This document shows, piece by piece, positions 3,299-48,926 of a stretch of 64,000 bases of DNA. How positions within the stretch are numbered: the stretch's first letter is position 1; every line of letters begins with the position of its first letter. A program made the position numbers and the translations under genes. The stretch comes from an uncultured bacterium. GTDB taxonomy: Bacteria; Patescibacteriota; Minisyncoccia; UBA6257; 2-01-FULL-56-20. The stretch covers positions 62,037-126,036 of the forward strand of contig CAWJQC010000009.1 of the NCBI GenBank assembly GCA_963844965.1, in the 5' to 3' direction. The notes beneath the pieces are model-generated. The model searched no databases. It was not told the DNA's origin and saw only the letters and a program-made list of their open reading frames with translations.

Positions 3299-3466
3299 CT
3301 TAATTTTTGATTATTTTGTTAAAATCTTTCATCTTTCGCGCCCGCCACAACTCTAACGCCTTCTCAAACACCCGATTATAGGCCCGCTCCACTCTGCATC
3401 TGCGCTCCATATCCTCATCCTCCGTCATCCCTGCGGGCTCGTGATAAAATATTTTCAATGGCGTTC
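3299..3466 (-). CDS. small hypothetical protein (56 aa), translationally coupled on both sides
   Basis: Found by manual translation: MRTPLKIFYHEPAGMTEDEDMERRCRVERAYNRVFEKALELWRARKMKDFNKIIKN. Its ATG overlaps the upstream stop as ATGA, and its stop abuts the ATG of the primase-like gene. It is below the 60-aa cutoff of the ORF track. Confidence 0.35.
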
Positions 3467-3718
3467 TCATTGGCTTTCGTAGAGCCGCCCCTTAATAATC
3501 CGCATCGCGTTGAAGTAGGCCGCCGGCTCGACCTTTAGCTCCCCGCGCCAGTAGCCCGTAATCAGTTCGTCCAATTTGGCATCCCGCTTGAAAATGAACT
3601 GCGCCTTGCGTGGATTCTCGCGGTCTATTGCTTCGAGCGGATAGAAAAGCGAAAGTGCCGTCGCGAGGGCGAGGTCTTGTGTCTTTACCAAATCATTTTC
3701 GTTTAATCGCGGAATCAT
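3467..3718 (-). CDS. small conserved mobile-element-associated protein (DUF5659-like, recalled from memory)
   Basis: 83 aa. VKTQDLALATALSLFYPLEAIDRENPRKAQFIFKRD...YWRGELKV resembles small proteins often found beside integrases. Confidence 0.35.
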   Translation of the reverse strand: MIPRLNENDLVKTQDLALATALSLFYPLEAIDRENPRKAQFIFKRDAKLDELITGYWRGELKVEPAAYFNAMRIIKGRLYESQ

Positions 3719-3819
3719 TCATGGCGATGACTCCGGCGAAATTAAAAAGCCGAAGCTCATCATGCTTCGACTTTACTAAATCGTCAGGTGAGTCAATTAC
3801 GACTCAATTGCTTCACATC

Positions 3820-4596
3820 TTAATAATTCCGTTTTATTGTTTTTTCTTGCCAAGTAAATAATTCGTCATCTGTGTTGCACACTTCTTTTATCCGTTTGTT
3901 CAGGGCATCCATAGCGTCATAAACCACTCGCCAGTTTTCTCTGGTTGCTGGCGGTTTCCCGAAAAATGCTTTGTAATATCCGACTATTCCCTCATAAATT
4001 TTAGACCAATCTATGGGTTCGCTCGCTCTATACTCATACATCGCACGACAAAGAAAATGCTCATTTTTATAGGGTGGAATTTGGCAATTTTGAGTTCCAA
4101 TGTACAACAGCGCCTTATCATCGTCATATTTTATCCCCATAGATTTTAGGCTAATTTTTGGTTTTGTGGTATTTTCTATCGTTTCTTTTTCATCGCCATC
4201 CGGTTTTGGAGCGATGGCATCAAATTTTTCCGTGTCAATCTCCAAAATATAAACCGGCTTATCGTAATCCTTATCTGGAGAAGAAACGAAGTTTGGCCGC
4301 TTTGGATAGGTGGGTTGCGGCGCATGAGGCGCAAACATGTGTATCTTTTTAAGAACAACGCGACCTTGCGCCATCCTCTCAAATCCTAATTTTATATCTT
4401 GGTCATCTAAACCCTCACTTAAGAGTTTCTCATGATATATCGGAATGTGAAGCGTTTTAATGCCAAACGGCCTCCGGTATTCCAGCGCATCATCTATTAC
4501 TCCTAAAAGTATTTCATATTTATTCTTCATTTTCATTGTCATTATTGCCTTTATTTTACCACCTTTTCCGCGCTCCGGCAACATAAAATCAGACAA
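3820..4596 (-). CDS. hypothetical protein (element cargo)
   Basis: 258-aa ORF with no recognisable motifs. The start may be the internal MKMKNKYEI. Confidence 0.4.
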   Translation of the reverse strand: MSDFMLPERGKGGKIKAIMTMKMKNKYEILLGVIDDALEYRRPFGIKTLHIPIYHEKLLSEGLDDQDIKLGFERMAQGRVVLKKIHMFAPHAPQPTYPKRPNFVSSPDKDYDKPVYILEIDTEKFDAIAPKPDGDEKETIENTTKPKISLKSMGIKYDDDKALLYIGTQNCQIPPYKNEHFLCRAMYEYRASEPIDWSKIYEGIVGYYKAFFGKPPATRENWRVVYDAMDALNKRIKEVCNTDDELFTWQEKTIKRNY

Positions 4597-4791
4597 AAAA
4601 CCGCCCCTTGCCGGCGGAAAATTCTCCCATTACGGATTACAGAAGGGGGTGGCAGGAGGGGCTGGAGATACCCTTTTTAGCGCCCCCATCATATCACTGG
4701 TGCTCATACGCACGCATCCCCTTAATATCGGGGGCATTGATACATACCCGATCCGATACCTGACCCTATGCTGTTTCCTTATAAAACCGCA

Positions 4792-5067
4792 CTAACGCCA
4801 AACGAGGGGAAAAACCGCCATCGCGCCCTTTGAGGCCTGCTTTTTCTTTGGCTTTTTTCGCTCCTCCTTCGGAAGTTCGGGAATCCCATGCTCATCCGCC
4901 AGCATCACCTCGCTATGGTATATGCGCCATTTCCTGCCTATCTTAAAGCCCCGCAACTGCCCTCTTTCAAGGAAGCGGCGAATAGTTTTGATACTCACGG
5001 CCCAATGCCGCGCTAAATTTCTGGTCGTCCAAGAGCGTTGGACAATAAGCGCTTCGTCTCTGTCCAT
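4792..5067 (-). CDS. excisionase-family HTH DNA-binding protein
   Basis: WTTRNLARHWAVSIKTIRRFLERGQLRGFKIGRKWRI matches the helix-turn-helix / excisionase pattern. Confidence 0.5.
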   Translation of the reverse strand: MDRDEALIVQRSWTTRNLARHWAVSIKTIRRFLERGQLRGFKIGRKWRIYHSEVMLADEHGIPELPKEERKKPKKKQASKGAMAVFPLVWR

Positions 5068-5297
5068 GGATTGACTTCCTCCTTTGGGGCTTCGGCCAAG
5101 CCCTCGCGGGTTAATCGTAGCGCCTCCTCGTAGGGTATGCGGCGCAATTTTCCGAGCTTCACGCTTCTTATCTTCTGGCTTTTAATCCACCGGTTAATGG
5201 TCGCTATGCTGACGGAAAGCTGACGGGCGAGTTCCTTTGTTTTCCACGCGCGCTCCACAAAGTATTCGTTGTAGCTCATGGTATAATTATACTCCAT
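5013..5297 (-). CDS. excisionase-family HTH DNA-binding protein (second copy)
   Basis: WKTKELARQLSVSIATINRWIKSQKIRSVKLGKLRRI. It overlaps the previous ORF by 55 nt, so the downstream gene probably uses a later start. Confidence 0.5.
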   Translation of the reverse strand: MEYNYTMSYNEYFVERAWKTKELARQLSVSIATINRWIKSQKIRSVKLGKLRRIPYEEALRLTREGLAEAPKEEVNPWTETKRLLSNALGRPEI

Positions 5298-5369
5298 GCG
5301 AGCATCATCTTATCCCCATCCACATCCACAACGCTTTACTTTAGCCCACAGATTGCTATTATTCAAATC

Positions 5370-21666: not shown

Positions 21667-21900
21667 TCACCGAACTCTTTTTCTAATCTTTCCACGTTGG
21701 CAAGCGCCGGTCCTTTGCGGCACCATCCCAAAAATTTCTCCAGTATCTTTTTCCTCGCCTTCGGCTTCAATATAAACCGAGCCGTCGGCCTCGTTGCGCA
21801 CAAATCCTTTTACGCCAAGTTTGTCGGCCGTAAGTTTCGCCTCAAAACGGAAGTTGACACCCTGCACATCGCCATAGATTTTGATTATCAGATTTTTCAT
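21667..21900 (-). CDS. acylphosphatase
   Basis: The start is the internal MKNLIIKIYGDVQGVNFRFEAKLTADKLGVKGFVRNEADGSVYIEAEGEE, which is the acylphosphatase signature. The ATG overlaps the stop of the upstream nuclease gene. The C-terminal tail looks odd and may be frameshifted. Confidence 0.55.
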   Translation of the reverse strand: MKNLIIKIYGDVQGVNFRFEAKLTADKLGVKGFVRNEADGSVYIEAEGEEKDTGEIFGMVPQRTGACQRGKIRKRVR

Positions 21901-22481
21901 TTCAAAGTTGATGTCGCCGGTGCTCCGAAAAACGGACAGGAGCCCCACAATCCCTTTTTGGCTTCGCGCGCTTCCTTCTCCGCAGTCACGAACTCTGCCG
22001 CATATTTTACATCCGGCGGAAAAGTTAACGCCGCCGCGTATCCTTCTTTGACCAATTCCAAATTAACGAAAGTGTCGTCTTGAAGGTAAACGTATCGCAG
22101 AAGCCGGCCATATTCGTCGCGTTCGCTCACATCTTTTACCAAGCGAACCGACCTTCCTTCCACCAATTCCTTGTTTCGCCGCGACGCCTCGGCTCCAAAA
22201 CATTCAACTGGCTTCCGAGGGTCAACGGTTTCCGGCGCGTCCATGCCGATGTAACGAACACGCTCGCCGCCCGCGAGTTCAATTGTGTCGCCGTCAATCA
22301 CGCGGGTAACCAAAGATAATGTTTGTTGACCGACTGCCGGCTCGGCAATTGAAACCGTGCTGCTCGCGCCCGATACAAAAACAGCGGATTGCGGCGCGCT
22401 CTTTGGCGATAAGAACCTTCCGGCAAAGAACCCGGCGATCGCCACGCCCGCGAACAACAGAAAAAATGGAACGCGCTTCAT
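21897..22481 (-). CDS. secreted thermonuclease (SNase / micrococcal nuclease family)
   Basis: It has a signal/TM N-terminus. VIDGDTIEL.GGERVRYIGMDAPE...FG.EA...LVEGRSVRL...RDEYGRLLRYVY are SNase motifs. Confidence 0.8.
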   Translation of the reverse strand: MKRVPFFLLFAGVAIAGFFAGRFLSPKSAPQSAVFVSGASSTVSIAEPAVGQQTLSLVTRVIDGDTIELAGGERVRYIGMDAPETVDPRKPVECFGAEASRRNKELVEGRSVRLVKDVSERDEYGRLLRYVYLQDDTFVNLELVKEGYAAALTFPPDVKYAAEFVTAEKEAREAKKGLWGSCPFFGAPATSTLK

Positions 22482-22749
22482 CTACCAGATTGTAAGCGAT
22501 TCAAACCACATTTCAAGTTTCCGCCAACCTTTTTACAAAGAAGGGTCTCGTGGCGAACAGAGAGCTATTGTGGGATTGAATGGGCCGGCGCGAGGGACGG
22601 AGAATATTTTTCTCGTAACTTCTGCCCAGATTTTACGTTTTCTCTGTTATAGAAATATTGCAAGCGACCATGGAGGTAAAAATTAAAAGTCGAGCCTCCT
22701 AAAGTCGTTGAGATAAACCGCCGAAAGGCAAAAATATCTCATCGGTTGT

Positions 22750-22914
22750 ATGTCTACACAATTATTTGGTCCGGAATTTGCCGCCGCCTTTATGAAGGCT
22801 ACTTGGGATGGTGTGCGGCTTGGTTTCGGTCTCGTTTGGCAAATCTTCGCTGCCGCCTGGCCGCTATGGCTAATCCTTATCGTCGTCACTGCCGTTGCTT
22901 ATCGTCTTAGGTAA
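22750..22914 (+). CDS. small hypothetical membrane protein (54 aa)
   Basis: Manual translation gives MSTQLFGPEFAAAFMKATWDGVRLGFGLVWQIFAAAWPLWLILIVVTAVAYRLR. A terminator follows at 23009. Confidence 0.3.
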   Translation: MSTQLFGPEFAAAFMKATWDGVRLGFGLVWQIFAAAWPLWLILIVVTAVAYRLR

Positions 22915-23008
22915 TTATTGAGCTTGGCACTATGCGAACTTGTCGAAAAAAGGTCGGGGAAAAATCTTGTTCGTGATAGACGATAATGAAATCTCTTGAG
23001 CGAAATTA

Positions 23009-23051
23009 GCCGCCAACGAAAATAAAAAACTGTTGGCGGCTTTTCGTTTTT
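23009..23051 (+). terminator. rho-independent terminator (also lies 3' of the minus-strand defense operon)
   Basis: GCCGCCAAC gaaaataaaaaactg TTGGCGGC TTTTCGTTTTT. Confidence 0.5.
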
Positions 23052-23071
23052 ATAAGGCGGGGAGGCGCGCT

Positions 23072-23461
23072 TTATTCTTTGGGAAAAGATTCCTTCACGA
23101 TAATGTCGTTCTTCTCGTATGGCCCAGAACTGGGCGGCTCAATTTCATTGCAGAGCTTAGTCTTGCCATGATTATTATACAAACCAAACTCTATATCCAA
23201 TCTATTGTTCTCATCTGAAACCTTGGCGTATCTATAATATGGCGACCTGCCACTTTTAAAAACCTTGTCTTTTATGCACTTATTGTTTTTATAATGATCT
23301 GATAATCTGTCCTTTATTAAGTCCTGACCGACATAAACAGGGAATCTCTTGTCTGTTTCTAGATTGCGGTAGCCAATCAAATAAACTCCATCAAAATTTA
23401 GATTGGCAAAATTGTCATCATTAAATTTTTTTGGACCAGACCAAGTAACGGTGAACTCCAT
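23072..23461 (-). CDS. hypothetical protein with GIY-YIG-like motif, last gene of the lexA-hsd operon
   Basis: DGVYLIGYRNLETDKRFPVYVGQDLIKDRLSDH fits GIY-(10-11)-YIG followed by R and H. It is separated from hsdS by 1 nt. Confidence 0.4.
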   Translation of the reverse strand: MEFTVTWSGPKKFNDDNFANLNFDGVYLIGYRNLETDKRFPVYVGQDLIKDRLSDHYKNNKCIKDKVFKSGRSPYYRYAKVSDENNRLDIEFGLYNNHGKTKLCNEIEPPSSGPYEKNDIIVKESFPKE

Positions 23462-23462
23462 C

Positions 23463-24833
23463 TTATTTTTTACTCTCTATCATTTCTTCGACCTTTAGCT
23501 TGGCTTCTTCTAATAATTCTTTTGCTTTTTTGCGGGCGGCGTGAGATTCGCGAATAAGTTCGGCGATTTTTTGCTGGGTTGGTTTGGGCAAAATTGGAAT
23601 TACAATATTCTCAACATCTTGATCGGTAATAGTTGGATAAGATGTGCCCGTTGTTGGTTTTTCCATTTGCAACTTACCGATGACGGACCGCAAAACAACC
23701 TGTAGATATTCGCGCGTCGGAGACGGGACTTCAAAAACCGAGAAGGCGCCACTCGCAACAAAGTTTTTGCTCCAGCTATCGGGCACGATTGCGATGGCAC
23801 CACGAGTGGGTCGAACTTTTGAAATCAACAGCTCGCCCCCGACAATTTTAATCTTGGCATTTGCGGGCAACTCTTTACCCAAGATCAAGTTACTAGAAAT
23901 TGCTCCGTTTCCAACGTTAACGTCGCTAATCTCGATATATTCGTATTGGACATCGGGCGCAAGCCCTGCCCGCCTTGCTGTTCGCTTAGCAATTTTGCCA
24001 AGAGGTTTTACATTTTCCCCCAAGAGTTTTATTAACTTTTGATACTTCGGCTGGAAAAATTCGGCGTCAATGCGATTCGCTTTTTTTGCTTCGGACAAAT
24101 TAACCACGCTCCATAATTCATTTTCCGATTCAAAATTCTTAAGCCCCAATTCTTCCAAAAGTAAATTTTCTGCTTGAGAGTATAGGGCATTTGCTTGATC
24201 CAAAGTGTTCTTGGCCCCAATCACCACATTGTTGATATCTTTGACGAATGCTTCTGATGGAATCGGATAAATCAAATCATAAACATCCTGGACATTTAAT
24301 TTGGGTTGAGCGTTCCCGCTAATTCTCCTCATAATCTGAGCAAAACCAAACCTAGAATTTAGAAAGGTTAACAGAAATATTTTTTGCTCCGGCATCACTT
24401 TCGAGTTTTTGAACTTGATACCGATGTTATTCTCACTTATATTACAAACTTCAAATTCTTCTGGCACGGCAGATACAATACCAATCGTGTTGCCAACTTT
24501 AGACATTATCAAGTCGAAGGGAGAAAGCTGAGATTGCTTTAGTCGGTCATTGTCCTTTTTTGAAATATATATGAGCTCGGTTTTATCAAGAAAAAAGTTT
24601 TGCAAATCAGAAATTCTCAAAAAAGGAATACCACTACTTACATAGGCACTACTTTTTAACGAGGAGCCGAAAGGGCCACTAACAACAACAGCGCTTTCTT
24701 TTAAGGTTTGTGTTCCGCCAGAAAATGATTTTATTTCGTTTATTAATTTCAAATACTCCGGCTGATAATATTCCGCATCCAGCCGGTACGCACCCTCCAG
24801 TTGAGATTTTTGGATGATAGAATAACTAACCAT
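23463..24833 (-). CDS. hsdS: type I restriction-modification specificity subunit HsdS (two target-recognition domains)
   Basis: 456 aa. The conserved RLDAEYYQPEY and IDAEFFQPKYQ repeats flank two variable TRDs. Confidence 0.85.
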   Translation of the reverse strand: MVSYSIIQKSQLEGAYRLDAEYYQPEYLKLINEIKSFSGGTQTLKESAVVVSGPFGSSLKSSAYVSSGIPFLRISDLQNFFLDKTELIYISKKDNDRLKQSQLSPFDLIMSKVGNTIGIVSAVPEEFEVCNISENNIGIKFKNSKVMPEQKIFLLTFLNSRFGFAQIMRRISGNAQPKLNVQDVYDLIYPIPSEAFVKDINNVVIGAKNTLDQANALYSQAENLLLEELGLKNFESENELWSVVNLSEAKKANRIDAEFFQPKYQKLIKLLGENVKPLGKIAKRTARRAGLAPDVQYEYIEISDVNVGNGAISSNLILGKELPANAKIKIVGGELLISKVRPTRGAIAIVPDSWSKNFVASGAFSVFEVPSPTREYLQVVLRSVIGKLQMEKPTTGTSYPTITDQDVENIVIPILPKPTQQKIAELIRESHAARKKAKELLEEAKLKVEEMIESKK

Positions 24834-25487
24834 TTATTTTCTATTCTCTTTTTTGAATTTAACCAGCTTGGCCATTATTGAATCATTTAAAACTATAGCT
24901 TTTTCAATAAATCTTTCGCAAAGCCTTATCTCTTTTCGCATTGTTTCCAGCCACGTCTTTTTGGTTAAAGATTTTTTTGATATTGGCCTAAAACTCCTGT
25001 CATAACCAGAAACAGCGGTGTCATAATAAATACGGTGAGTTAACATCTTTCGCTTTACTAATATCTCATGCATAACTTTGTCTTCGTTGAATTTCTCTAG
25101 ATCTTTTTTAACCGAAGATTTTCTGACCATAGAATCTTCAGTAAGTTTATTGAATAAAGAAGCTTTTTCTGAAAATTGCAGATCAAGAGAGGCGTTTATA
25201 AGTTGGCAAATTTTTTCCCTATACGAAAACGCTCTCAACCAAAAATTTTCCAGGTGGTAGCCCAGGGATTCAAAATCAGTTTCCTGATGAATCGGTGATA
25301 GCCAGCCCTTGCCTGTCATAATTATTTTCGCAGTCCTTTCACAAAGCAGGTACGTCCTGGCTGCCCTACTATAAACGTCAATCAAATCGGATATTTCTTG
25401 ACGGACCTCATTGTGATAGGCTTTCGCTTTCTTGGGAAACAATCGCCTATCAAAATCAAAAAATGGTTGCCCTTTTGTTTTTTTCAT
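24834..25487 (-). CDS. hypothetical protein inserted between hsdM and hsdS; HEPN-like Rx4H motif (candidate Abi-type effector)
   Basis: 217 aa. KRKMLTHRIYYD contains R-x4-H. Its position between hsdM and hsdS is typical of embedded defense genes such as PrrC or Abi. No protein-level match is recognised. Confidence 0.4.
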   Translation of the reverse strand: MKKTKGQPFFDFDRRLFPKKAKAYHNEVRQEISDLIDVYSRAARTYLLCERTAKIIMTGKGWLSPIHQETDFESLGYHLENFWLRAFSYREKICQLINASLDLQFSEKASLFNKLTEDSMVRKSSVKKDLEKFNEDKVMHEILVKRKMLTHRIYYDTAVSGYDRSFRPISKKSLTKKTWLETMRKEIRLCERFIEKAIVLNDSIMAKLVKFKKENRK

Positions 25488-25498
25488 TATTTTTTATC

Positions 25499-26806
25499 TC
25501 AAAAATCGAATTTTTGTTCCTTGGTAAATTTCACGAATGCCTCGGCGATTTCGTCCAAGTCGTGGTCAAGCACCTTACGGCCTTTAGAGCCGTGCACATA
25601 ACTACCGTTCGCGTCTTTTTTATAAATATAGTCACCAGAATTATCTTTGCTACCTTTTTTAGAGACCGCCATGAAAATTGGATAATCCTTTTGCGGTTTG
25701 CCAGTGTCGCCGCCCCATTTTTGTAAAAAGAGCACGCTTGTTTTTGTGCCGGTATGCGGCTTGAACGTGTTACCGTGAAGCCCGACGACGGCAAGAATAC
25801 GCGCTTTTTCAAAAAGCCACTCACGGATATATTCCATGTTGGTGTTGTTAAGCACGCCTTGCGGCAGAACGATTGCCAAGCGGCCGCCGGGACGGAGCAT
25901 GTCCAATGCGCGTTCAATAAATAAAATGTGTCGCTCAACGTTATTGCGAAGCTTACCTCCTTCTTTTTTTGCCAGTTCGTACTGGCGCAGAAGTCCCTGC
26001 TCCGGATTTTCTCCGGCGAAGGGCGGATTCGTGAGCAATATATCAAAATTCAAATGCCGATAGGTCAGATGATTTTCCTTGTCGCTTTCGCTATTATCCA
26101 AGGTTTGCAACAGAGGTTTAAGCGCCACGCGTGCTTCTTCCGCCTCCGGACCAGTCCACTCCCGCGAATCCAACGAATCACGTTTGAAAATATGGTGCTT
26201 GCCATCGCCAGCGATAAGCATTAATGCCTGCGATATCCGGCGCATGTTGTCGTCAAAGTCAATGCCAAAAAGATATTTTGCGGCGTAGGATTTTTTCGCC
26301 GCTTCGGTTTTTGAAAAATTGTCCCAGACATGATACATCGCGTGAAGGAGGAATCCGCCAGAGCCGCATGCCGGATCTACCACGTATTCGTTTTCTTTCG
26401 GGCTGAGCATCTTTACGCACATTTTAATGACATGCCGCGGCGTGAAATACTGCCCCTTTTTTCCCTTAGAAACTTCGGTGATGAGATGCTCAAACGCTCC
26501 ATCCACAATCTCGTATTCGCCCTGCCCAAGCTCAAATAAGCGAATATTTTCCACGAACGGCACGCAGATGTTAAGGCGTGCGGCGGTAAGCTTGATTTTA
26601 TCCGATGGTTCGAATGTGTCGGGCCACTCCTTGACCGCTTCCTTAAAAAGCCCGTTTACAACCTCGTAGGTTTTTTCGGCGTCTTTATATCTTCTAAACA
26701 ACACCTCCCTACTTTCCCTTTCTCGGATAGCCATTTGCTCATCGTAGAGCTTGGCGTAAATAAGCTTGAAGATTCTCTTCAAAAACATTACCGCCGGAGC
26801 CGGCAA
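25499..26806 (-). CDS. hsdM: type I restriction-modification N6-adenine DNA methyltransferase HsdM
   Basis: The protein is 435 aa. It has the AdoMet motif VVDPACGSGGFL and the catalytic motif LLTNPPFAG. Confidence 0.9.
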   Translation of the reverse strand: MPAPAVMFLKRIFKLIYAKLYDEQMAIRERESREVLFRRYKDAEKTYEVVNGLFKEAVKEWPDTFEPSDKIKLTAARLNICVPFVENIRLFELGQGEYEIVDGAFEHLITEVSKGKKGQYFTPRHVIKMCVKMLSPKENEYVVDPACGSGGFLLHAMYHVWDNFSKTEAAKKSYAAKYLFGIDFDDNMRRISQALMLIAGDGKHHIFKRDSLDSREWTGPEAEEARVALKPLLQTLDNSESDKENHLTYRHLNFDILLTNPPFAGENPEQGLLRQYELAKKEGGKLRNNVERHILFIERALDMLRPGGRLAIVLPQGVLNNTNMEYIREWLFEKARILAVVGLHGNTFKPHTGTKTSVLFLQKWGGDTGKPQKDYPIFMAVSKKGSKDNSGDYIYKKDANGSYVHGSKGRKVLDHDLDEIAEAFVKFTKEQKFDF

Positions 26807-27452
26807 GCGCTAATTCTTCTATACGCTTGACGACTTTTATGAAGTCAAACTTCGGGGTCAAATCGCTCCACGTTTTCTTAATTTCAAACAAATCGTCCAC
26901 TGTTTGATCGGCCGTTGGAATCTCGCTCAATGATTCATATTCTTTCGGATAGGGACGATATAAAATTACTTTATCCGTGCCGTTAGACCAGATGCCGATC
27001 TCCGACCCCTCCGCGCTCAAATACGCTTTTAATTGTTCCTGCCCTTTCTTTTCGCTGGGCGCCTTAACTTCGACAATAATGTACGGTGTGATTTTATCTT
27101 TCTTGTAAACAACGATGTCCGCGGCCTTTGCGTGAATTTCTCGTCCAAAGTGGATGCTTTTTTCTGTTTCCATTCGCTCAAACGGATATTTGTAGTTGGT
27201 GTGAAGTTTATATAACCAGAGTTGGCGGACGATTTCCTCCGGCCTGCCTGCGTTTTTCTTGGCATCAAAAACTAAACGTTTTTTACCGCTTTTCAGGTCG
27301 GCGATGAAAAAACGGCTTGGTTCGTCTTCGGTAATTTCGAGCGCCGCGTTAAATTCTACGCCCTCAAACTCTTTGAGACCGTAGAGCAGCTCGGTATCCT
27401 TAAAAATCTTTCCAATTATTTCCTCTGCTTTGTTTTGTTTTTTGGTGGGCAT
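26739..27452 (-). CDS. stand-alone HsdR N-terminal-like PD-(D/E)xK nuclease domain protein (HSDR_N family)
   Basis: 237 aa. KAADIVVYKKDKITPYIIVEVKAPS...QLKAYLSAEGSEIGIWSNGTDKV matches the HSDR_N pattern D..v...iivEvK...Q...Y...G..tNG. It overlaps the hsdM start. No helicase-type HsdR is present in the window. Confidence 0.6.
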   Translation of the reverse strand: MPTKKQNKAEEIIGKIFKDTELLYGLKEFEGVEFNAALEITEDEPSRFFIADLKSGKKRLVFDAKKNAGRPEEIVRQLWLYKLHTNYKYPFERMETEKSIHFGREIHAKAADIVVYKKDKITPYIIVEVKAPSEKKGQEQLKAYLSAEGSEIGIWSNGTDKVILYRPYPKEYESLSEIPTADQTVDDLFEIKKTWSDLTPKFDFIKVVKRIEELALAGSGGNVFEENLQAYLRQALR

Positions 27453-27453
27453 A

Positions 27454-28095
27454 TTATCTTATCGGTTGCCAATAGTTATTTTTAAGCACCGAGATAATTT
27501 TTCCTTTGAGTTCCATCTCGTGGGTAAAAGGAATCAGCTCGTACTTTGGGTTTTCGGGCTTAAGGTACACGTATGGCGGTTTGTCGTCGGACATGAATCG
27601 CTTTATCGTGCCCTCGTCGCCGATTTGGGCATAGACTATTTCACCGGATACGAATTCTTTTTTTGTTTGAACTAGCACGGCGTCGCCGTCGTCAATACCC
27701 GCGTTTATCATCGAATCGCCGGAGACTTTGAGCATAAACACCTCTTCCGCCAATCTGGAAATCTCTTGAGAAACTGGCTGCCATTCACCGGAAATTTCTA
27801 TCGACTGAATCGGAGCCCCGGCGCTTGTTATGCCAAGAAAGGCCGCGAGGGGCGGTCTACCGAGCATCTCATACCCCAAAGGCAATATGGCTAATCCTCT
27901 AGCAGCTCCTTCTTTTCTTTGTATTATTTTATTTTTCTCAAGCTTATTGAGAAGATCTAAAACTGATTGATTTGAGGAAACGCCTAGACTTTCTCGCATT
28001 TCATCAAAAGTCGGTGGATGGCCATCGCTCTTAATATATGAGTAAATAACCTCTAAAAGCTGCTTTTGTCTTGGTGTTGTTATATTTTTCATCAC
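27454..28095 (-). CDS. lexA: LexA repressor (S24 peptidase)
   Basis: N-terminal winged HTH. An AG site lies in the linker (TSAGAP). The C-terminus has GDSMINAGIDDGDAVLV...GTIKRF, which is the Ser-Lys dyad. Its stop is 1 nt from the next gene's ATG. Confidence 0.85.
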   Translation of the reverse strand: MMKNITTPRQKQLLEVIYSYIKSDGHPPTFDEMRESLGVSSNQSVLDLLNKLEKNKIIQRKEGAARGLAILPLGYEMLGRPPLAAFLGITSAGAPIQSIEISGEWQPVSQEISRLAEEVFMLKVSGDSMINAGIDDGDAVLVQTKKEFVSGEIVYAQIGDEGTIKRFMSDDKPPYVYLKPENPKYELIPFTHEMELKGKIISVLKNNYWQPIR

Positions 28096-28099
28096 TTAC

Positions 28100-28128
28100 A
28101 TTATACCCGACTATATATTCAGTTACAA
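28100..28128 (-). promoter_or_regulatory. candidate lexA promoter (TTGTAA-17-TATAAT) with near-palindromic AACTGAATATATAGTCG between the hexamers
   Basis: rc reads attgTAACtgaatatatagtcgggTATAATgtaagtgATG. The -10 ends only about 7 nt before the ATG. Confidence 0.35.
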
Positions 28129-28265
28129 TGCGGGTTTATGCACAACCCCTTTTTGGCTGTTTTTTCCAGTAACTCCCACTTTTCCGCGGATTTTTCCGGA
28201 GTAGTAGAAACTCGACAGGCTGGCGCTGGAAGAAAAAGTCGAGTTTCACCACCCCGCATAGCACC

Positions 28266-29006
28266 CTAGCGCACCCTTACCGCACCTTTGCGCAAAATTT
28301 TCAGATGCCCGTCATTAATCGCCACGAGCGTTGAGGGTTCGGAAACGCACCGGCCGGTGTCAATATAAAAATCCACCTTGTCTCCGAAATAGCGCCGTGC
28401 TTCGCGAACCGTCCGCGCCGGCTTCTCACCTTCCCAATTGGCACTCGGAGCCACAAGTGGCCCGACATTAACCAATAGTCGTCTTAGCCAATAGGGCTTA
28501 GGCAGACGGAATGCCAGAGTTTTAGTCCCGCGATGAAGGTATTTAAATTTTTTAATTTTTAATTTTGAATTTCCAATTTTCAATATCACGCTTACCTTGT
28601 TGGGCCAAACCCGATTCAAAATTTTCCTCTCTTTAGCTCCGATTTTCACGCCGAATTTTTTTGGGTCGGCCAGCGAAGCGATAAGAACGATCATCGGCTT
28701 CCGCGGATTCCGCCGCCTCAACTTGTAAATCCTTTCAACCGTTTTCTTGTTCAAGGCCGAGCCGACGATGCCATAAATGGTGTCGGTAGGCAAAATTCCC
28801 ACGCCGCCGGCAAGCAGTATATCTTTTGTTTTTTTATCTTTATCTAATGAACGGCTGATCTTGGGCATATTAGCTCTTGACCCGCAAAATTGCGGTTTGC
28901 TTGAAATTATCGTACAATACAAAGATGCAAAACACAAAACAAACGATAACCATTGCGGTCGTTTTGATAGTGGTCGTCGCGGTTCTCTGGTGGGTGTTCG
29001 GGACAC
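28266..29006 (-). CDS. tsaC: L-threonylcarbamoyladenylate synthase (Sua5/YrdC/TsaC family)
   Basis: LLAGGVGILPTDTIYGIVGSAL is the YrdC signature. The real start is probably the internal MPKISRS. Confidence 0.8.
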   Translation of the reverse strand: MSRTPTREPRRPLSKRPQWLSFVLCFASLYCTIISSKPQFCGSRANMPKISRSLDKDKKTKDILLAGGVGILPTDTIYGIVGSALNKKTVERIYKLRRRNPRKPMIVLIASLADPKKFGVKIGAKERKILNRVWPNKVSVILKIGNSKLKIKKFKYLHRGTKTLAFRLPKPYWLRRLLVNVGPLVAPSANWEGEKPARTVREARRYFGDKVDFYIDTGRCVSEPSTLVAINDGHLKILRKGAVRVR

Positions 29007-32977: not shown

Positions 32978-33058
32978 GTCTTTTATGATTATTATAACAA
33001 AATCCTTTTAGAAAACAAGGCCGCGGTAAAATACTCCGCGGCCTGCGCATTTCGCGCG

Positions 33059-33481
33059 CTAAGACGTTTCAAGCCGGTTCTGGTCGTCAACAAGCGCGAG
33101 AAGAACTTTGTTGAGGCTTTTGCTAATGCCACGCTTGTTTTCACTCTCAACAACCCTTTCAATCTCGGCGCGATTTACGAGAACGATCCTCTTTACCCTA
33201 TTCATCAAGAAAAATACAGCAAATGCCATGCCAAATCTGAATCTTGAATCTTCAGAACCGATAACCGGCAAAATGTGGACTTCATCCGACCGGGCTATGT
33301 CGCCCAACTCATTCATGTAATTCTGCAAGCCAACCGGATCGTCCTGTTTCATGTCGCGCGCTGGCCAATAAACCTCATGACCGTCGCGTTCCAATTCATC
33401 AACGTGCTCCCTTGCGGCTGTATGTTCGAGACCTCTATCACAAATCAGAAAGATTTTTTTCTTTCTTTTCTCGTTTTTCAT
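33059..33481 (-). CDS. hypothetical protein, possibly nucleoside 2-deoxyribosyltransferase-like Rossmann fold
   Basis: KIFLICDRG...DGHEVYWPARD...GSEDSRFRFGMA is a weak pattern match. Confidence 0.3.
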   Translation of the reverse strand: MKNEKRKKKIFLICDRGLEHTAAREHVDELERDGHEVYWPARDMKQDDPVGLQNYMNELGDIARSDEVHILPVIGSEDSRFRFGMAFAVFFLMNRVKRIVLVNRAEIERVVESENKRGISKSLNKVLLALVDDQNRLETS

Positions 33482-33605
33482 AAGCTCCCAGCGGTAACTT
33501 TAAAACGGCTGAATATAATATAGGTTACCGCGGGAATTTTTGCAAATAAACAAAAGCGTTTCCCTACGCTATACCAGCACCTTCCTCAAATATTGCCCGG
33601 TAAAT

Positions 33606-33665
33606 CCCCACACCTAACAGCGAGCAGGTTTTACTCTGTTACTCGCCATTAGGTGTGGGGATAAA
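33606..33665. repeat. hairpin repeat family 3, copy 2, immediately 3' of uvrA
   Basis: ccccacacctaacagcgagc...gctcgccattaggtgtggggataaa. Confidence 0.5.
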
Positions 33666-33676
33666 ACTTCCCATCA

Positions 33677-36200
33677 TTAAACCAATACCTTCCTAAGATA
33701 CTGTCCGGTGAAGCTCCCTGCCCTGCGGCTGATTTGCTCCGGCGTGCCTAGGGCGACAATCTTGCCGCCCTTCTCGCCGCCTTCGGGACCGAGATCAACC
33801 ACCCAGTCGGCGCATTTAATAACGTCCAAGTTATGTTCAATCACAACGACCGTGTTGCCGCGGTCAACAAGCTTTTGCAGAACCAAAAGCAGTTTATCCA
33901 CGTCGTCAAAATGTAGGCCGGTCGTCGGCTCGTCCAAAAGATAAAGGGTGCGGCGCGTGTCACGTTTACCGAGCTCCGCCGACAAGTTTCATCCGCTGTG
34001 CCTCGCCGCCGGACAATGTCGTTGCCGACTGGCCAAGCGTCAAGATAGTCCCAAGCCGACCTCTTCCAAAATCAAGAGCTTGTCGTGGAGCCACGGGATA
34101 TCATTGAAGAAATCCACCGCTTCTTCAATCGTCATCTTTAAAATGTCATAAATATTTTTCCCTTTATATTCACACTTCCAGCGTTTCGCGGTCAAACGTT
34201 TTCCCTTGCAAACATCGCAGGTGACGATAGACCGTCGGCAGGAAATGCATTTCAATCGCAATCGTGCCGTGCCCTTCGCAATTTTCACACCGCCCGCCCG
34301 GCACGTTGAAACTGAACCGGCCCGGTTTATATCCGCGGACTCGAGCATCCTCCGTGGCCGCAAAAGATCGCGGATATAAGTCCACGCGCCTACATAAGTC
34401 GCGGGATTTGAACGCGGCGTCCTGCCGATCGGCGACTGGTCAATGTTGATAACACGATTAACATATTCCACGCCCGAGATCGCTTTTATGCCACCCGCTT
34501 TGTAATTGCGCGTGATAAAATTTATCGGCCAGATTTTTATAAAGCACGTCGTATACCAAGCTGATTTACCCGAACCGGAAACGCCGGTGACCGCCGTAAA
34601 ACGCCGGAGCGGGATATCCACGTCAATATTTTTCAGGTTATTCGCGCGTCGCGCCACGAATCTTCAGGAATTCATGCGCTTCGGAGATATTTCCGCTTCG
34701 CGTTTCTGGAACTTCAATGAATTTTTTGCCGCGAAGATATTGCAGCGTGAGCGAATCTTCTTCTTTATCCTTTATGATGTCTGGCAATCGGCCTGTCGGC
34801 TACGATTTTTCCGCCATGAATGCCCGCCCCCGGACCGATATCCACCAAATAATCCGATTCGCTGATTGTTTCCTCGTCGTGCTCAACGACGATGATCGTA
34901 TTCCCCAAATCGCGCAGATTGTGCAGGGTCGCGATCAATTTGGCGTTGTCCCGCTGATGGAGACCGATTGTCGGCTCGTCCAAAATATAGAGCGTGCCTA
35001 CGAGCCGCGAGCCGATCTGCGACGCCAAGCCGAATTCTCTGCGCCTCGCCGCCAGACAGCGTGCCCGCTTTCCTGTCAAGCGTCAGATAATCCAAACCGA
35101 CGTCCATCATGAATTTCAGCCGGCTTTTGATCTCGCGAAGCGGTGCTTCGGCAACGGCCTTCCGCTTTCGCTTTTCAGACTTAAACCTCCGAAAAAATTC
35201 ATAGTGCTTCGTCGATGGAGAAGCGCAGTGACGGAGTTAATATTTTTGTCGTTTACGAGTACGTTCAAGCTTTCTTCCTTGAGCCGCTTGCCTAGGCAGA
35301 CCGGACAGATTTCCTCCGACCAAATATCCTTCGTTCCCAAACCGTGGCAGGCGGGACAAGCGCCGTACGGGCTATTGAACGAAAAAAGTCGCGGCTCAAT
35401 TTCCGGGAAAGAAAAGCCGTCGTGCGGACAGGTGAATTGGGCGGAAAGCGAGACTTCCTTGTCGGTGATAACCGTAACGACGTCGTTGCCGTATTTGAGC
35501 GCCGATTCGATCGCTTCGGCAAGACGCAAACGATTATCCTTATCGCTGAAATCTATTTCCGCCGGCAACCGGTCGACGACAAGCTCAATCGTGTGCTGCT
35601 TATAGCGGCTGAGTTCAATGCGATCGCGCAGTGATTGAAATTTGCCATCTATGCGCACTTCGGAAAAACCGGCGTTCAGAAAATCGTAAAGCATTTGGTA
35701 ATATTCCCCTTTCCTGCCACGCACGACCGGCGCCAAAATCACCAGATTTTTCCCTTCTTTGTCGTTTTTCGCGATATCGATCGCCACATCAACGATTTCC
35801 TCGTTCGTAAGTTTCTTGATTTCCCTGCCGCAGCGCGGGCAGAAAGGTTTGCCGACACGCGCGAAAAGAACACGGAGATAATCATAGATCTCGGTGATGG
35901 TTGCTACCGTGGAGCGTGGATTGGAGGAATGGCTTTTCTGGTCAATGGAAATCGCCGGCGAAAGTCCCTCAATCTCGTCCACGTCAGGTTTGTCCAGACG
36001 TCCCAAAAACTGCCGCGCGTAGGCGGAAAGCGACTCAATGTAGCGCCTTTGTCCTTCGGCGAAAATCGTGTCAAAGGCCAAACTGGACTTGCCGGACCCG
36101 AAAGACCGGTGAAAACTATCATTTTGTCGCGCGGGAGCTCAAGATTAATATTCTTAAGGTTGTGTTCCCGCGCACCTTTTATGATAATTTTGTCATGCAT
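33677..36200 (-). CDS. uvrA: excinuclease ABC subunit A (UvrA), split into at least 5 ORFs by single-nucleotide frameshifts
   Basis: The five ORFs (35904..36200, 35116..36081, 34765..35110, 34040..34657, 33677..33985) together give a colinear UvrA with Walker A, CxxC Zn modules, ABC signature and the second ATPase domain. At Walker A, gggtccgg reads GLSGPAS; adding one t restores [23 protein letters not shown], so this is a homopolymer indel. Confidence 0.85.
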
Positions 36201-36363: not shown

Positions 36364-36888
36364 ATGGGTAAGAACGAAAAAAACACGGACGGATCTTGCG
36401 GATGGAGTTATCACAGAAAACTGGGTCAAATCGCAAAATTTATGAAAATTCTGGGTGTCCTGCTCCTTCTGACTCTGAGAACTATCCCCGCATGGGCAGC
36501 GCTCGGTCAGTACGAGTCGTCAGTAAGTGTGGACCAGCAGTATCTGCGCAGCGAGGACCGCGTCCAGAACTTCCAGGGTTACAAAATTCACCAGCTAACG
36601 ACTGCGAACGGCACAATAATTCGAGAGTACGTCTCGCCGAAAGGTCTGGTCTTTGGAGTCGCCTGGCAGGCGCCCTTTATGCCCAACATGCAGCAGTTGT
36701 TGGGGTCATACGTTACGAACCTCCAGACAGCCTCGCGAACTCAGACCCAGGTCCGGCACCTCAGGGGACTGATCGTGAAAATGAATGATTTCGTGTTCGT
36801 CAGCGGCGGTCACATGCGGTTTTGGAAGGGAAGCGCCTACGTGCCCAGCCTAGTTCCCAACAACGTCTCCGTGGAGGTGGTGCGATGA
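36364..36888 (+). CDS. secreted hypothetical protein (DUF2844-like, recalled), partner of the downstream lipoprotein
   Basis: The probable start is MKILGVLLLLTLRTIPAWA, a signal peptide. The GC content is visibly higher than the flanks. Its stop overlaps the next ATG as ATGA. Confidence 0.45.
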   Translation: MGKNEKNTDGSCGWSYHRKLGQIAKFMKILGVLLLLTLRTIPAWAALGQYESSVSVDQQYLRSEDRVQNFQGYKIHQLTTANGTIIREYVSPKGLVFGVAWQAPFMPNMQQLLGSYVTNLQTASRTQTQVRHLRGLIVKMNDFVFVSGGHMRFWKGSAYVPSLVPNNVSVEVVR

Positions 36889-38224
36889 CTCTGGTAAATT
36901 GTTCGAAAGCAACATTAGCCTGCTTTCTTGCAGTAGTCACGGGACTGATCCTTTTGGATGGTTGCGGCAACAATAATAGCAACAGCAACATTATCAGTAC
37001 ACCTCCTCCGCCTACGAGTAATACAGCGCCAGTAACGGTCGGCTTTGGGGTCTTGGGACCGTCGGGTGGATATGTGAATGGGATTTGGACGACGGTGACC
37101 ATCTGTGCACCCAGCAGTACCACCAATTGCCAGACGGTCAATGATGTACTCGTGGACACAGGTTCCTTCGGCCTACGCGTTCTCAACTCAGCGCTCACCA
37201 CCGTTCCAGCGAGCTCGCTGGGAACGATTACGAGCAACGGCAGTCAGTTGCAGGAATGTGTCCAGTATGGGGACACAGCCTATACTTGGGGACCTGTGAT
37301 GCTGGCGGATGTTGGGATTGAGGGAGAGAAGGCCTCCTCAATTCCTATTCAGGTCATTGGAGGCAATTCATTCGATGTCCCTGGTGCTTGCACCGCAATC
37401 CCAATTAACCCCGGTCTTCCAAATGCGGGCAACGACGATACCTTAGACGCGCTTGGCGCCAACGGGATCCTGGGTGTCGGCGGTTACGCATGGGACTGCG
37501 GCCCTACTGCGAGAACGTTGTTGCTGGTGACCCCTATTACCTTTGTCCCAGCGGCCAATGCGAGCAAGTCGGGGTTCCACTCCAGTATCAAGTCACAAGC
37601 CCGGTCGCAGCGTTTTCCTCGTCGGATAACAATGGAGTGTTAATCACCCTGACGTCCATTTCGGCGAGCGGAGCTGCCGATGGGACGGTTTCTGGCTCGT
37701 TGATTTTTGGAATCGGAACCCAAACTGACAACGCCCTCGCTGGTAGCGCCACGGTTTATGGGGTCGACGAGTACGGCAACATTCCAGAGATTACCTACAA
37801 CGATTTCCAATACACCCCTCCCAACAACACGAACATCTTAGATACCGGATCGAATGCGATCTATTTTCTGGACGCCAACACCCTGGCCTCGGCTGGAATT
37901 ATCGAGTGCGCGGATGCCCCGGGTTTCTATTGTCCAAACAATACTATTCCGTTCACTACAACCTTTTCGGGCGCGAACGGCACATCGGGGGCGATAACGT
38001 TCAGCATTGCGGATGCGAATATATTGTTCGCAAGCGGCAACGCGGCGTTCAACGACTTGGGAGGCGATGGTGGCACCAGCCCTTCTAATGATAGTTTGGA
38101 CTTCGGATTGCCATTTTTCTTCGGTAAGAGCGTGTACGTCGGAATGATGCCGGGATTGTTCACGGGTGAGAGCGCTGCGCCAAGCGCCGCGACAAGCGCG
38201 ACGTACGGATATTACGCGTTTTAG
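36885..38224 (+). CDS. pepsin-like (A1-type) aspartic peptidase lipoprotein; frameshift near 37500
   Basis: Lipobox LILLDGC. The first catalytic motif is VLVDTGSFGLRV. The flap is ECVQYGDTAY (Tyr-Gly). The second motif is NILDTGSNAIYF, found in ORF 37490..38224. The two ORFs join colinearly. Confidence 0.55.
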
Positions 38225-46780: not shown

Positions 46781-48926
46781 TTAACTCGCGCTTTGCGCTT
46801 TTCCGCCACGGGAAAACTCCCGTTTTCCCGACCCCTTTCCCGCGCGAGTTAGCAGTAATTTCAATGATTTTATCTCATCGCGAAGGATTGCCGCCAATTC
46901 AAAATCTAAGCGCTTTGCCGCTTCGCGCATTTCCTTTTCTTTTTCGGCAATCAGTTTCTGCAACGCGGTCTTGGACTTCGGTATCGGCTTCAGTTCCAAC
47001 GCCAGCATCTCATCAACATTCGGCAGAATATCGGAGATTTTTTTCTCTATCGTCTTCGGCGTAATATGGTGTTTTTTATTGTATTCAAACTGAAGTTTGC
47101 GCCGGCGTTCGGTTTCGGCCACCGCGCGTTTGATTGAACCGGTGATGTAATCGGCATAGATCAAAACTTCGCCGTTAACATTACGCGACGCTCTGCCAAT
47201 CGTCTGTATAAGCGACGTTTCACTTCGCAAAAATCCTTCTTTGTCGGCGTCCAAAATCGCCACAAGCGAGACCTCCGGCAGGTCCAACCCTTCGCGCAGG
47301 AGGTTGACGCCTACGAGCACATCAAATCCGCCGCGCACGCCGGAACCTTTGCGCAAATTAGTCAGAATCCTTATACGGTCAAGCGTTTTTACGTCGCTAT
47401 GCAAGTAAGTCACGTTGATTTTCTTTTCCTCCAGATAGGCCGCGAGGTCTTCCGCCATTCTTTTGGTTAGTGTGGTCACGAGAACTCGTTCCTTGTTCCT
47501 AACCCGTTCCTCCATGCGCGGGATTAAGTCATCAATCTGTCCGCGCGCCGGCCGCATGGTAATTTTGGGGTCAACCAAACCGGTGGGACGGATGATTTGC
47601 TCCACCGTTTGCGCGCTTTTTTTGCGCTCGTCAGCGGTCCGGCGTCGCCGAAGTATAAACGACCTGCCTGACTTTCGCTTCAAATTCCGGGAATTTCAGC
47701 GGCCTGTTATCTATCGCGGACGGCAGGCGAAAACCGTATTCAACCAGCGTCTTTTTGCGCGATGCGTCGCCCTCGTACATCCCTTGAATTTGCGGAACGG
47801 TCATGTGCGATTCATCAATAACCGTCAAAAAGTCCGGCGCGCCCGAATCGGTCCGCGGAAAGTAGTCCAAAAGAGTGTCCGGCGGCTCGCCCGCGGCGCG
47901 GCCCGACAAATGCCGCGAATAATTTTCAATCCCGTGGCAGTAGCCGACTTCCCGCATCATGGCGATGTCAAACTTCGTGCGCCGTTCAAGACGCTCGGCT
48001 TCAAGCAATTTGCCGCTCTTTTCAAAATATGCGAGCCGTCCCTTCAATTCTTCCAAAATCGCGGCAATTGCCCGTTCACGTTCCGGCGCCTCGGTTATGA
48101 AGTGCTTTGCCGGCGCTACGTAAATCTCGCGCAGTGTCGGCATTTTGTCCGGCTGAAACCCTACGACGGGGTCAACTTCGTAGATTTTTTTGATTATTTT
48201 TTCGCTGGCCGATCCGGATTTTACCGAAGAATGTTCTAGTTCAAAATTGTAAACTACTTCCTTGTCCGGCGGCATAATTTCCCAGTTATCGCCGCGCAAA
48301 CGGTATGTCCCGCGTTTCAGGTCGGAATTAGTCCGCGTAAACTGAAGCGAAACGAGTTTCCGCGCGAACTCTTCGCGTTTTATTTTGTCGCCGACTTTAA
48401 AGTGAAAAATGTTCTGTGCGTAAACTTCGGGCGCGCCCAAGCCATAGATACAGGAAACAGAAGCGACAACAATCACATCGCGCCGCGTTAGGAGCGCTGT
48501 TGTCGCCGCGTGGCGGAGCTTGTCTATCTCGTCGTTAATCAGCGCCTCCTTGTCTATGTAGGTGTCGCTAGACGGAATATACGCTTCCGGCTGGTAATAA
48601 TCGTAATAGGAAACGAAATAATTGACGGAATTTTTCGGAAAAAGTTCACGGAATTCGTTCGTAAGCTGCGCCGCCAGGGTTTTGTTGTGAGCGATAACGA
48701 GCGTCGGCTTCTGGATTTCCGCGATAACGTTCGCCACGGTAAATGTCTTACCGCTCCCCGTAACACCCAAAAGCGTCTGGTCTCTGTACCCTCTTTGCAG
48801 ACCGGAAACAAGCGACTTAATCGCCTTTGGCTGGTCGCCTGACGACTTGTATTTGGATATGATTTGAAAATTGTTCATTGAAAATTGTGCGGTCTGAAAC
48901 CCAAACGCCCCTCGGTCCGTAGCCAT
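46781..48926 (-). CDS. uvrB: excinuclease ABC subunit B (UvrB); frameshift near 47631-47683
   Basis: ORF 47631..48926 holds the N-terminal helicase domain ([15 protein letters not shown]). ORF 46781..47683 holds helicase C and the UVR motif ([16 protein letters not shown]). They are colinear. Confidence 0.9.

Follow-up and report, generated by a model that had tools for sequence, protein, structure and literature searches.

In most bacteria of the candidate phyla radiation (CPR), to which the Patescibacteria belong, CRISPR is missing, and their defence is believed to depend on restriction systems. Here we describe an operon headed by lexA in an uncultured bacterium of this group (Patescibacteriota; Minisyncoccia; UBA6257; 2-01-FULL-56-20). 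It lies at positions 23072 to 28128, on the minus strand, of a 64-kb stretch of DNA (GenBank assembly GCA_963844965.1, contig CAWJQC010000009.1, positions 62,037 to 126,036), here called the window; what is said below about HsdR and about operator sites in this organism covers those 64 kb. The best explanation of the locus, in which we have moderate confidence as a whole, is that five genes under LexA control encode a type IIB-like restriction enzyme together with two passenger genes. The enzyme consists of a fused nuclease-methyltransferase, the restriction-modification (RM) subunit, and a separate specificity (S) subunit. The gene order lexA, RM, variable cargo, S recurs across CPR bacteria, with conserved catalytic residues and a conserved operator in the lexA promoter.

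Six open reading frames (ORFs) lie on the minus strand within 23072-28095, with intergenic gaps of 1, -68, 11, 0 and 1 nt. A sequence-only reading of the same DNA took them for a six-gene operon, namely lexA, a stand-alone 237-aa HsdR-N-only nuclease, hsdM, a HEPN insert, hsdS and a gene for a GIY-YIG-like protein. The positions, the strand and the tight spacing stand, as do LexA at the head, the HEPN insert and HsdS. The 237-aa nuclease (ORF237), however, is the N-terminal domain of a 650-aa fused protein; the next ORF (ORF435) encodes its methyltransferase part, for which the N6_Mtase assignment holds, but not as a separate gene. With these two ORFs joined, the operon has five genes. Its features are as follows.

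28123-28128, minus strand: -35 box TTGTAA of the lexA operon promoter, the best promoter-like match (10/12 positions)
28105-28124, minus strand: predicted LexA operator AACTGAATATATAGTCGGGT, an imperfect 20-bp palindrome (29.1 bits)
28100-28105, minus strand: -10 box TATAAT, ending 7 nt ahead of the ATG
27454-28092, minus strand: lexA, 212 aa from the ATG (TIGR00498 and Pfam); an in-frame GTG lies at 28095
25499-27452, minus strand: RM gene, 650 aa after repair, in two frames in the deposited assembly
26913-27260, minus strand: PD-(D/E)xK nuclease domain (HSDR_N_2; Pfam PF13588, E 2.8e-23)
26771-26780, minus strand: frameshift site GAAGAGAATC, one extra base compared with orthologues (GAAGAAATC or GAGGAGATT)
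25499-26773, minus strand: helical connector and N6-adenine methyltransferase domain (Pfam N6_Mtase, E 2.2e-38), aligning with BsaXI residues 228-627
24834-25487, minus strand: HEPN gene of the Cthe_2314 family, 217 aa (PF18730), cargo between RM and S
23463-24833, minus strand: S subunit gene, 456 aa, with two target-recognition domains (PADLOC Specificity_I, Pfam Methylase_S)
23072-23461, minus strand: gene of a 129-aa GIY-YIG-fold protein (ORF129) with the motif residues given below
23009-23040, minus strand: likely operon terminator, the hairpin GCCGCCAAC...GTTGGCGGC with a T-rich stretch behind it

A probable LexA-headed transcription unit and its predicted operator

By sequence, the first gene encodes a true LexA. 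Its product scores 144.8 bits against the NCBI equivalog model TIGR00498 (cutoff 110.95), matches Pfam LexA_DNA_bind and Peptidase_S24, and carries the Ala-Gly cleavage site (within 27811-27825), the GDSM serine (within 27709-27720) and the KRF lysine (within 27595-27606); the catalytic residues are invariant across the four CPR LexAs compared. TTGTAA-17-TATAAT at 28128..28100 is the best sigma-70-like promoter on the minus strand in the region scanned (22400-28400) and the only strong one. Because the only strong promoter precedes lexA, the gaps are at most 11 nt and the last gene has a terminator hairpin behind it (the 96-nt stretch containing this hairpin folds at -26.1 kcal/mol by RNAfold), the predicted single transcript from lexA through the GIY-YIG gene is well supported by the anatomy of the locus, in agreement with the earlier proposal of one transcript from the lexA promoter. 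The -10 box ends about 7 nt before the ATG, and the lexA mRNA is therefore probably leaderless. An Rfam scan over the whole window gave zero matches.

A 20-bp palindrome lies between the -35 and -10 boxes of 55 unique CPR lexA promoters. The family consensus is ACC[A/C]GAC[C/T]A-AA-TAGTCGGGT, with the core GACY-N4-RGTC, a layout that recalls the Gram-positive GAAC-N4-GTTC LexA box; perfect palindromes occur among the copies, for instance CCCGACTATTTAGTCGGG. An equivalent -35 box, TTGAC, is kept in related loci, and in most of 80 loci 29-30 nt separate the beginning of the operator from the start codon. At a threshold of more than 16 bits, no other site was found in the window, including uvrA, uvrB and uvrC, nor in 970 kb of related loci, where weaker matches occur at the level of shuffled sequence, that is, of chance. 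A predicted operator of the kind that the sequence-only reading had proposed to look for thus exists at the lexA promoter and not at the uvr genes of the window. These repair genes do lie around the operon, as had been pointed out, but they are no conserved feature of it, since each related locus has other flanking genes.

Two further features of lexA promoters and operator-like sites were recorded. In 43 of 65 unique lexA upstream regions, the -35 box is closely preceded by a DnaA-box-like motif, TTATCCACA with at most one mismatch, against a chance expectation of about 0.03 per region. It sits 49-53 nt before the lexA start codon (loci L002, L009-L026 and L093-L172), is degenerate in the window (around 28140-28150), and by its recurrence is a second conserved cis-element of CPR lexA promoters. 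The sole other operator match in the window, at 3770-3789, is weak (16 bits) and lies 71 nt upstream of an 83-aa ORF. It falls in a region (3300-5300) that by eye has a prophage- or mobile-element-like appearance, with short minus-strand ORFs resembling excisionase-type helix-turn-helix proteins (4792-5297).

Conservation of the cassette across CPR bacteria

Three homologues of the locus on unrelated contigs have the same order, lexA, RM, a variable insert and S, with different flanking genes each time. When metagenomic loci were scanned with the RM protein, lexA was found immediately upstream of RM at 58 of the 59 loci with enough upstream DNA, and S was found downstream in 52 of 52. Among 15 species-representative genomes with a LexA at least 58% identical, RM starts 4-15 nt after lexA in 10 and has left a remnant in one more; the gene is also present in one genome whose LexA is 46% identical. 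Outside CPR bacteria, an RM gene follows lexA at none of about 54 LexA loci. Because the lexA-enzyme linkage is conserved across CPR bacteria, it is, as far as gene order can tell, a lineage-wide design of CPR rather than a one-off.

Such a near-obligate linkage invites the explanation that the LexA homologue serves this cassette alone and is no global SOS regulator, the whole being a self-contained, damage-sensing immune module. This explanation overlaps with the LexA-controlled type IIB-like operon that we prefer and differs from it in regulon scope only. Besides the linkage, it draws on the confinement of the operator to lexA promoters, in the related loci as in a window that holds uvrA, uvrB and uvrC, on the changing neighbours of the cassette, and on the existence of other CPR LexA types (39-46% identity) without the module. 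On the other hand, the protein scores above the NCBI equivalog cutoff for LexA, and an SOS network study of Patescibacteria has been published (cited in PMC8565304). We regard a dedicated controller as possible and put it forward tentatively.

A probable type IIB-like enzyme without HsdR

With the reading frame restored, the closest solved relative of the RM protein is RM.BsaXI, a type IIB restriction-modification subunit, which outranks every type I HsdM chain (E 3.4e-32 with the single sequence). When a profile of 31 orthologues is used, the match to RM.BsaXI reaches E 4e-42 and falls into two colinear stretches, one over the nuclease (profile 65-135 against BsaXI 41-112) and one over the connector and methyltransferase (220-584 against 228-627). 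Mutagenesis of BsaXI identified E73, D90, E105 and K107 as catalytic, and the four are reported to be conserved without exception among type IIB enzymes (PMC11997821). Their counterparts in the RM protein are E97, D112, E128 and K130 (codons at 27162-27164, 27117-27119, 27069-27071 and 27063-27065), the predicted catalytic residues here, which are invariant in 15 orthologues of 49-90% identity and in the 31 database orthologues. The S-adenosylmethionine (AdoMet) motif DPACGSGGF (26351-26377) and the catalytic NPPF (26018-26029) of the methyltransferase are both intact.

The S subunit matches PADLOC Specificity_I over positions 18-454 (E 9.5e-42), Pfam Methylase_S, and HsdS chains in the PDB (E 1.5e-16). 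Its first 25 or so residues (..SIIQKSQLEGA.RLDAEYYQPEYL, window 24760-24833) are highly conserved, while the rest is about 36% identical between loci; this N-terminal segment may serve as a docking segment for the RM subunit.

As the sequence-only reading had noted, there is no helicase HsdR: no HsdR-type or REase_I match was obtained among window ORFs of at least 150 aa. None was present in the gene tables of three related loci, and no recurrent HsdR appeared in the flanks of related loci among the 25 of 83 families listed. What this absence means has changed. The sequence-only reading had set the locus against canonical type I systems, which need HsdR, and had called it a candidate non-canonical defence system; RM plus S is most likely, judged from these alignments, a type IIB-like (BsaXI/BcgI-like) enzyme, for which cleavage is predicted. 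Enzymes of this class need no translocase, so the lack of HsdR is what one would expect and no anomaly. Like BsaXI and BcgI, the system combines an N-terminal PD-(D/E)xK domain and an N6-adenine methyltransferase in one subunit and has a separate two-domain S, with no translocase found in the operon or in the 64-kb window; unlike BsaXI, its genes appear to be co-transcribed with lexA, a variable gene lies between RM and S, and two-sided cleavage is a prediction. The kinship with type I systems such as EcoKI is also clear, in that S is homologous to HsdS and the methyltransferase core to HsdM, a hypervariable S stands beside a conserved M, and PADLOC files the RM gene as MTase_I. The nuclease domain, however, is fused to the methyltransferase, and because the window holds no HsdR motor we do not class the system as type I. 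What sets it apart is its place behind lexA, its effector slot and its conservation across the lineage.

Over 50 non-redundant loci, RM has a median pairwise identity of 69% (range 54-100%), LexA one of 62% and S one of only 36%. The distances of LexA are correlated with those of RM (rho 0.45, Mantel p 0.001), whereas S is nearly decoupled from RM (rho 0.12). A hypervariable S with conserved enzyme subunits is, as a sequence pattern, the usual signature of restriction systems under diversifying selection. The same numbers bear on a second alternative, in which RM and S form a housekeeping methyltransferase tied to DNA damage, for example one that re-marks new DNA after repair, with restriction absent or vestigial. 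So high a conservation of RM, in a fixed position behind lexA, is atypical of mobile restriction systems and speaks for this view. However, the catalytic tetrad of the nuclease is invariant, S varies independently of RM, and the slot between them collects toxin and abortive-infection genes, all of which fits an arms race. We consider a purely housekeeping role unlikely.

One RM gene in two frames

The evidence that ORF237 and ORF435 are one gene comes from several directions. On the PADLOC model PDLC03034 (672 positions) the two ORFs cover positions 55-225 and 220-668, and on NCBIfam MAD2 (654 positions) positions 14-164 and 201-615, consecutively in both cases. Deletion of one base from GAAGAGAATC (26771-26780) yields the 650-aa protein, reading ...GNVFEEIFKLIYAKLYDEQ... 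across the site. Of the more than 7000 homologues found for the repaired protein, the best 120 share a length of about 650 aa, are 73-90% identical, and carry PF13588 together with PF02384; the named organisms among these 120 belong to Patescibacteria/CPR lineages. In a relative that is at least 90% identical the frame is open straight across the site, the extra base is missing from the DNA of all five orthologues compared, and the complete RM copies in the related loci examined are all fused. The downstream half, moreover, has no proper start of its own, only a TTG inside the overlap.

The split is, in our judgement, most likely an assembly indel error, because other conserved genes of the window are split as well: uvrB (46781-48926) lies in two overlapping ORFs that cover model positions 1-394 and 397-651, uvrA (33000-36081) is fragmented, with a 321-aa ORF holding only the UvrA_inter part, and a DUF3443 gene (36822-38224) is divided in two. 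An independent Logan contig of the locus (ERR10755942) is 99.96% identical to the window; it has A5 (position 253 of L001) where the window has A6 (26457), inside the RM gene, which produces a different frameshift, and it differs by one single-nucleotide polymorphism at 22800. The split uvrB, uvrA and DUF3443 genes together suggest indel errors throughout this assembly. Programmed frameshifting or phase variation at 26771-26780 was considered and is unlikely, since the site forms no repeat tract and splits also affect three further conserved genes.

It follows that the six-gene, non-canonical system of the earlier description, with a free-standing HsdR-N nuclease beside a separate HsdM, would need the frameshift to be real. 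In its favour, the deposited assembly does encode the 237-aa ORF, and the indel elsewhere in the same gene of the Logan contig could hint at variation at the population level. Against the uniform fusion among relatives, the companion splits in uvrA, uvrB and the DUF3443 gene, and the bare TTG start of ORF435, we find it very hard to sustain. A reduced methylation-associated defence system (MADS), in which MAD2 has an HSDR_N-like N-terminus as the RM protein does, can be set aside as highly improbable: MAD2 (E 9.7e-82) and MAD5 (E 5.1e-48) are the best NCBIfam models, and PADLOC mad2 and mad5 also match, but the NCBIfam scores remain well short of their curated cutoffs (275 against 720 for MAD2, 164 against 400 for MAD5) and no other mad genes are present in the operon.

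The slot between RM and S

The distance from RM to S ranges from 12 to 2446 bp across metagenomic loci, and what fills it differs. Among 69 non-identical slot ORFs we recognized DUF3800 (8), PBECR3 nuclease-like proteins (3), Trypsin_2 with Trypco2 (2), DUF4145 HEPN (2) and OLD/AbiEii-like ATPases (2), as well as PemK/MazF, Schlafen AlbA_2, PycTM and an RnlA-type domain, one each; about two thirds have no Pfam match. By these domain matches, the slot is a site of varying toxin-like cargo. In the window, the GC content falls from about 0.50 in the flanks to 0.36-0.42 across the HEPN, S and ORF129 stretch, with 0.36 in the HEPN gene.

The occupant of the slot in the window scores 44.8 bits against PF18730 (HEPN_Cthe2314; cutoff 27.1) and carries R146-x4-H151 (25035-25052), a motif kept in full-length homologues. 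Close homologues are few, and those found stand alone elsewhere. That restriction operons can contain HEPN or Abi genes is well known, PrrC-EcoprrI being an example, and the survey that treats them gives no gene-neighbourhood link for the Cthe_2314 family (Anantharaman et al., 2013; PMC3710099). The present operon resembles PrrC-EcoprrI and the like in having a HEPN-type effector gene inside a restriction operon, with slot genes of a toxin-like kind that vary from genome to genome. It differs in that the close homologues of this HEPN protein stand alone, and a masking of the effector by the enzyme would be an analogy only.

The HEPN and GIY-YIG genes had been regarded as parts of the system; they are instead locus-specific cargo, for neither this Cthe_2314 HEPN gene nor ORF129 occurs in any of the roughly 100 related loci. 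Other positions in the cassette also carry extra genes. A conserved protein of about 175 aa (MPPPI..TIRD.IYW.YAKLIS...) follows S in two unrelated cassettes (L013 12750-13301 and L019 12732-13247); cargo may have a second position behind S, comparable to the one that ORF129 takes in the window. A 123-aa ORF between lexA and RM in locus L002 showed no similarity to ORF129.

The GIY-YIG family of ORF129

The last gene of the operon has been described as encoding a GIY-YIG-like protein, which holds for the fold and the motif residues but not for the standard profile. ORF129 has the GIY-YIG fold with the Tyr/Tyr/Arg/His/Glu/Asn motif residues (GVY 25-27, YVG 43-45, R52, H56, E91 and N105), and the positions of GIY, YIG, Arg, His, Glu and Asn do not vary within its family; Pfam PF01541 misses the family, matching 1 of 13 members at E 0.026. 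There are 13 close homologues, and 123 clusters at lower stringency, mostly of 105-165 aa.

In four of five independent contexts, a LexA-like gene is followed at a distance of 4-23 nt by the gene of a close ORF129 homologue. The LexA-like proteins there have 215-218 aa and are about 30% identical to CPR LexA. Three of these gene pairs are followed by an operon of a cyclic-oligonucleotide-based antiphage signalling system (CBASS), and one by a DUF7380/EMARD_N gene; in the fifth context the homologue lies beside ubiquitin-like E1/E2 genes. Because the association recurs, it suggests that the family is functionally tied to LexA-type repressors in defence loci, and the LexA-like and GIY-YIG proteins may be a new regulator pair for defence systems. 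The pair loci (L089/L090 5330-8724, L091 5346-9168, L092 5340-7837 and L174 5328-8195) lie on contigs whose gene content is unlike that of the CPR cassette loci, and the CBASS operons behind the pair have a CD-NTase with Cap15 or with SAVED-HNH. No association was found between the ORF129 family and viral contigs.

Proposed mechanism and significance

In the mechanism that we propose, the operon would be transcribed from its single leaderless promoter, with the LexA operator in the promoter spacer, and LexA would keep expression low and self-limiting. RM and S would most likely assemble like BsaXI, as (RM)2S, with S reading a bipartite site, the methyltransferase domain marking host DNA and the N-terminal PD-(D/E)xK domain cutting unmarked DNA; no ATP-driven HsdR motor would be needed. 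Upon DNA damage, or when phages generate single-stranded DNA, RecA-stimulated self-cleavage of LexA would lead to more enzyme and more of the slot effector. The two passengers, of the HEPN RNase type and, at the 3' end, of the GIY-YIG nuclease type, might then act as second-line or abortive-infection effectors. Restriction activity, SOS induction and the roles of both passengers are accordingly to be read as predictions from gene content.

Several points weigh against this explanation. The alignment with the BsaXI N-terminus is short (71 positions, E 8.7e-4), and the RM protein has 650 aa against 916 in BsaXI, being shorter at the C-terminus by about 266-290 residues. The alignment ends at the BsaXI C-terminal extension (beyond residue 627), which has no counterpart in the RM protein and in which the mutated 'paddle'-tip residues E811-E823 lie (PMC11997821). 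Because an AlphaFold model of the full-length orthologue P0002 (31 aligned sequences; pLDDT 54, pTM 0.32) was too poor for fold comparison, the link to BsaXI is one of sequence profiles. Repression by LexA is suggested by the position and conservation of the operator. Promoter-like matches inside the operon exist, weak as they are (9/12 positions), and an HsdR or other LexA targets could lie beyond the 64-kb window. If the frameshift were real, the RM enzyme would be inactive or split in this organism. Finally, conservation as high as this (60-90%) and an unchanging gene order are not usual in restriction systems that serve defence alone.

Regulators of defence that respond to DNA damage include CapH/CapP and CapW for CBASS, and restriction systems can be controlled by C-proteins. 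A LexA dedicated to the cassette would have the part of such regulators. The LexA-controlled operon is like these in that a repressor gene heads a defence operon and could couple its expression to a signal of damage or infection. It is unlike them in having, by sequence, a true LexA with an S24 self-cleaving domain, and in a linkage that is lineage-wide in CPR. A literature search (LexA with restriction-modification and CPR; hsdM with SOS regulon) found nothing on the lexA-RM linkage; the 2017 paper on the Patescibacteria SOS network lay outside its scope. That paper, by Sanchez-Osuna, Barbe and Erill in Environ Microbiol, deals with this regulator in this superphylum and may already list an hsdMS-type operon among the LexA targets.

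A bolder proposal, which we consider speculative and rather doubtful, is that the main and perhaps only target of CPR LexA is its own type IIB-like operon with a swappable effector slot, an SOS switch turned into an inducible antiviral module, and that ORF129-type GIY-YIG proteins are partners of LexA-like repressors, an undescribed pair that fronts CBASS and other defence operons outside CPR. 

A restriction enzyme wired to LexA across most of a superphylum would make the DNA-damage switch and the antiviral defence of these bacteria one circuit, and the LexA-like and GIY-YIG pair ahead of CBASS operons would be a third kind of damage-sensing regulator for CBASS. The RM-S slot offers a ready place to look for new effector genes. 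There is also a lesson for annotation: behind what looks like an "HsdR-less type I system", a frameshift may conceal a type IIB-like enzyme.

Other genes of the window

Just downstream of the operon, at 21897-22481 on the minus strand, a gene encodes a staphylococcal-nuclease-family protein with a hydrophobic N-terminal stretch. It matches the PADLOC candidate C3a212 (SNc+LTD) at E 2.6e-37, and the same gene follows the operon in the Logan contig. Farther away, a 158-aa ORF between atpA and atpG (55026-55502, minus strand) gives below-cutoff matches to the NCBIfam models of IcmJ/DotN and IscB, which suggests a small endonuclease-like gene inserted in the ATP synthase operon.

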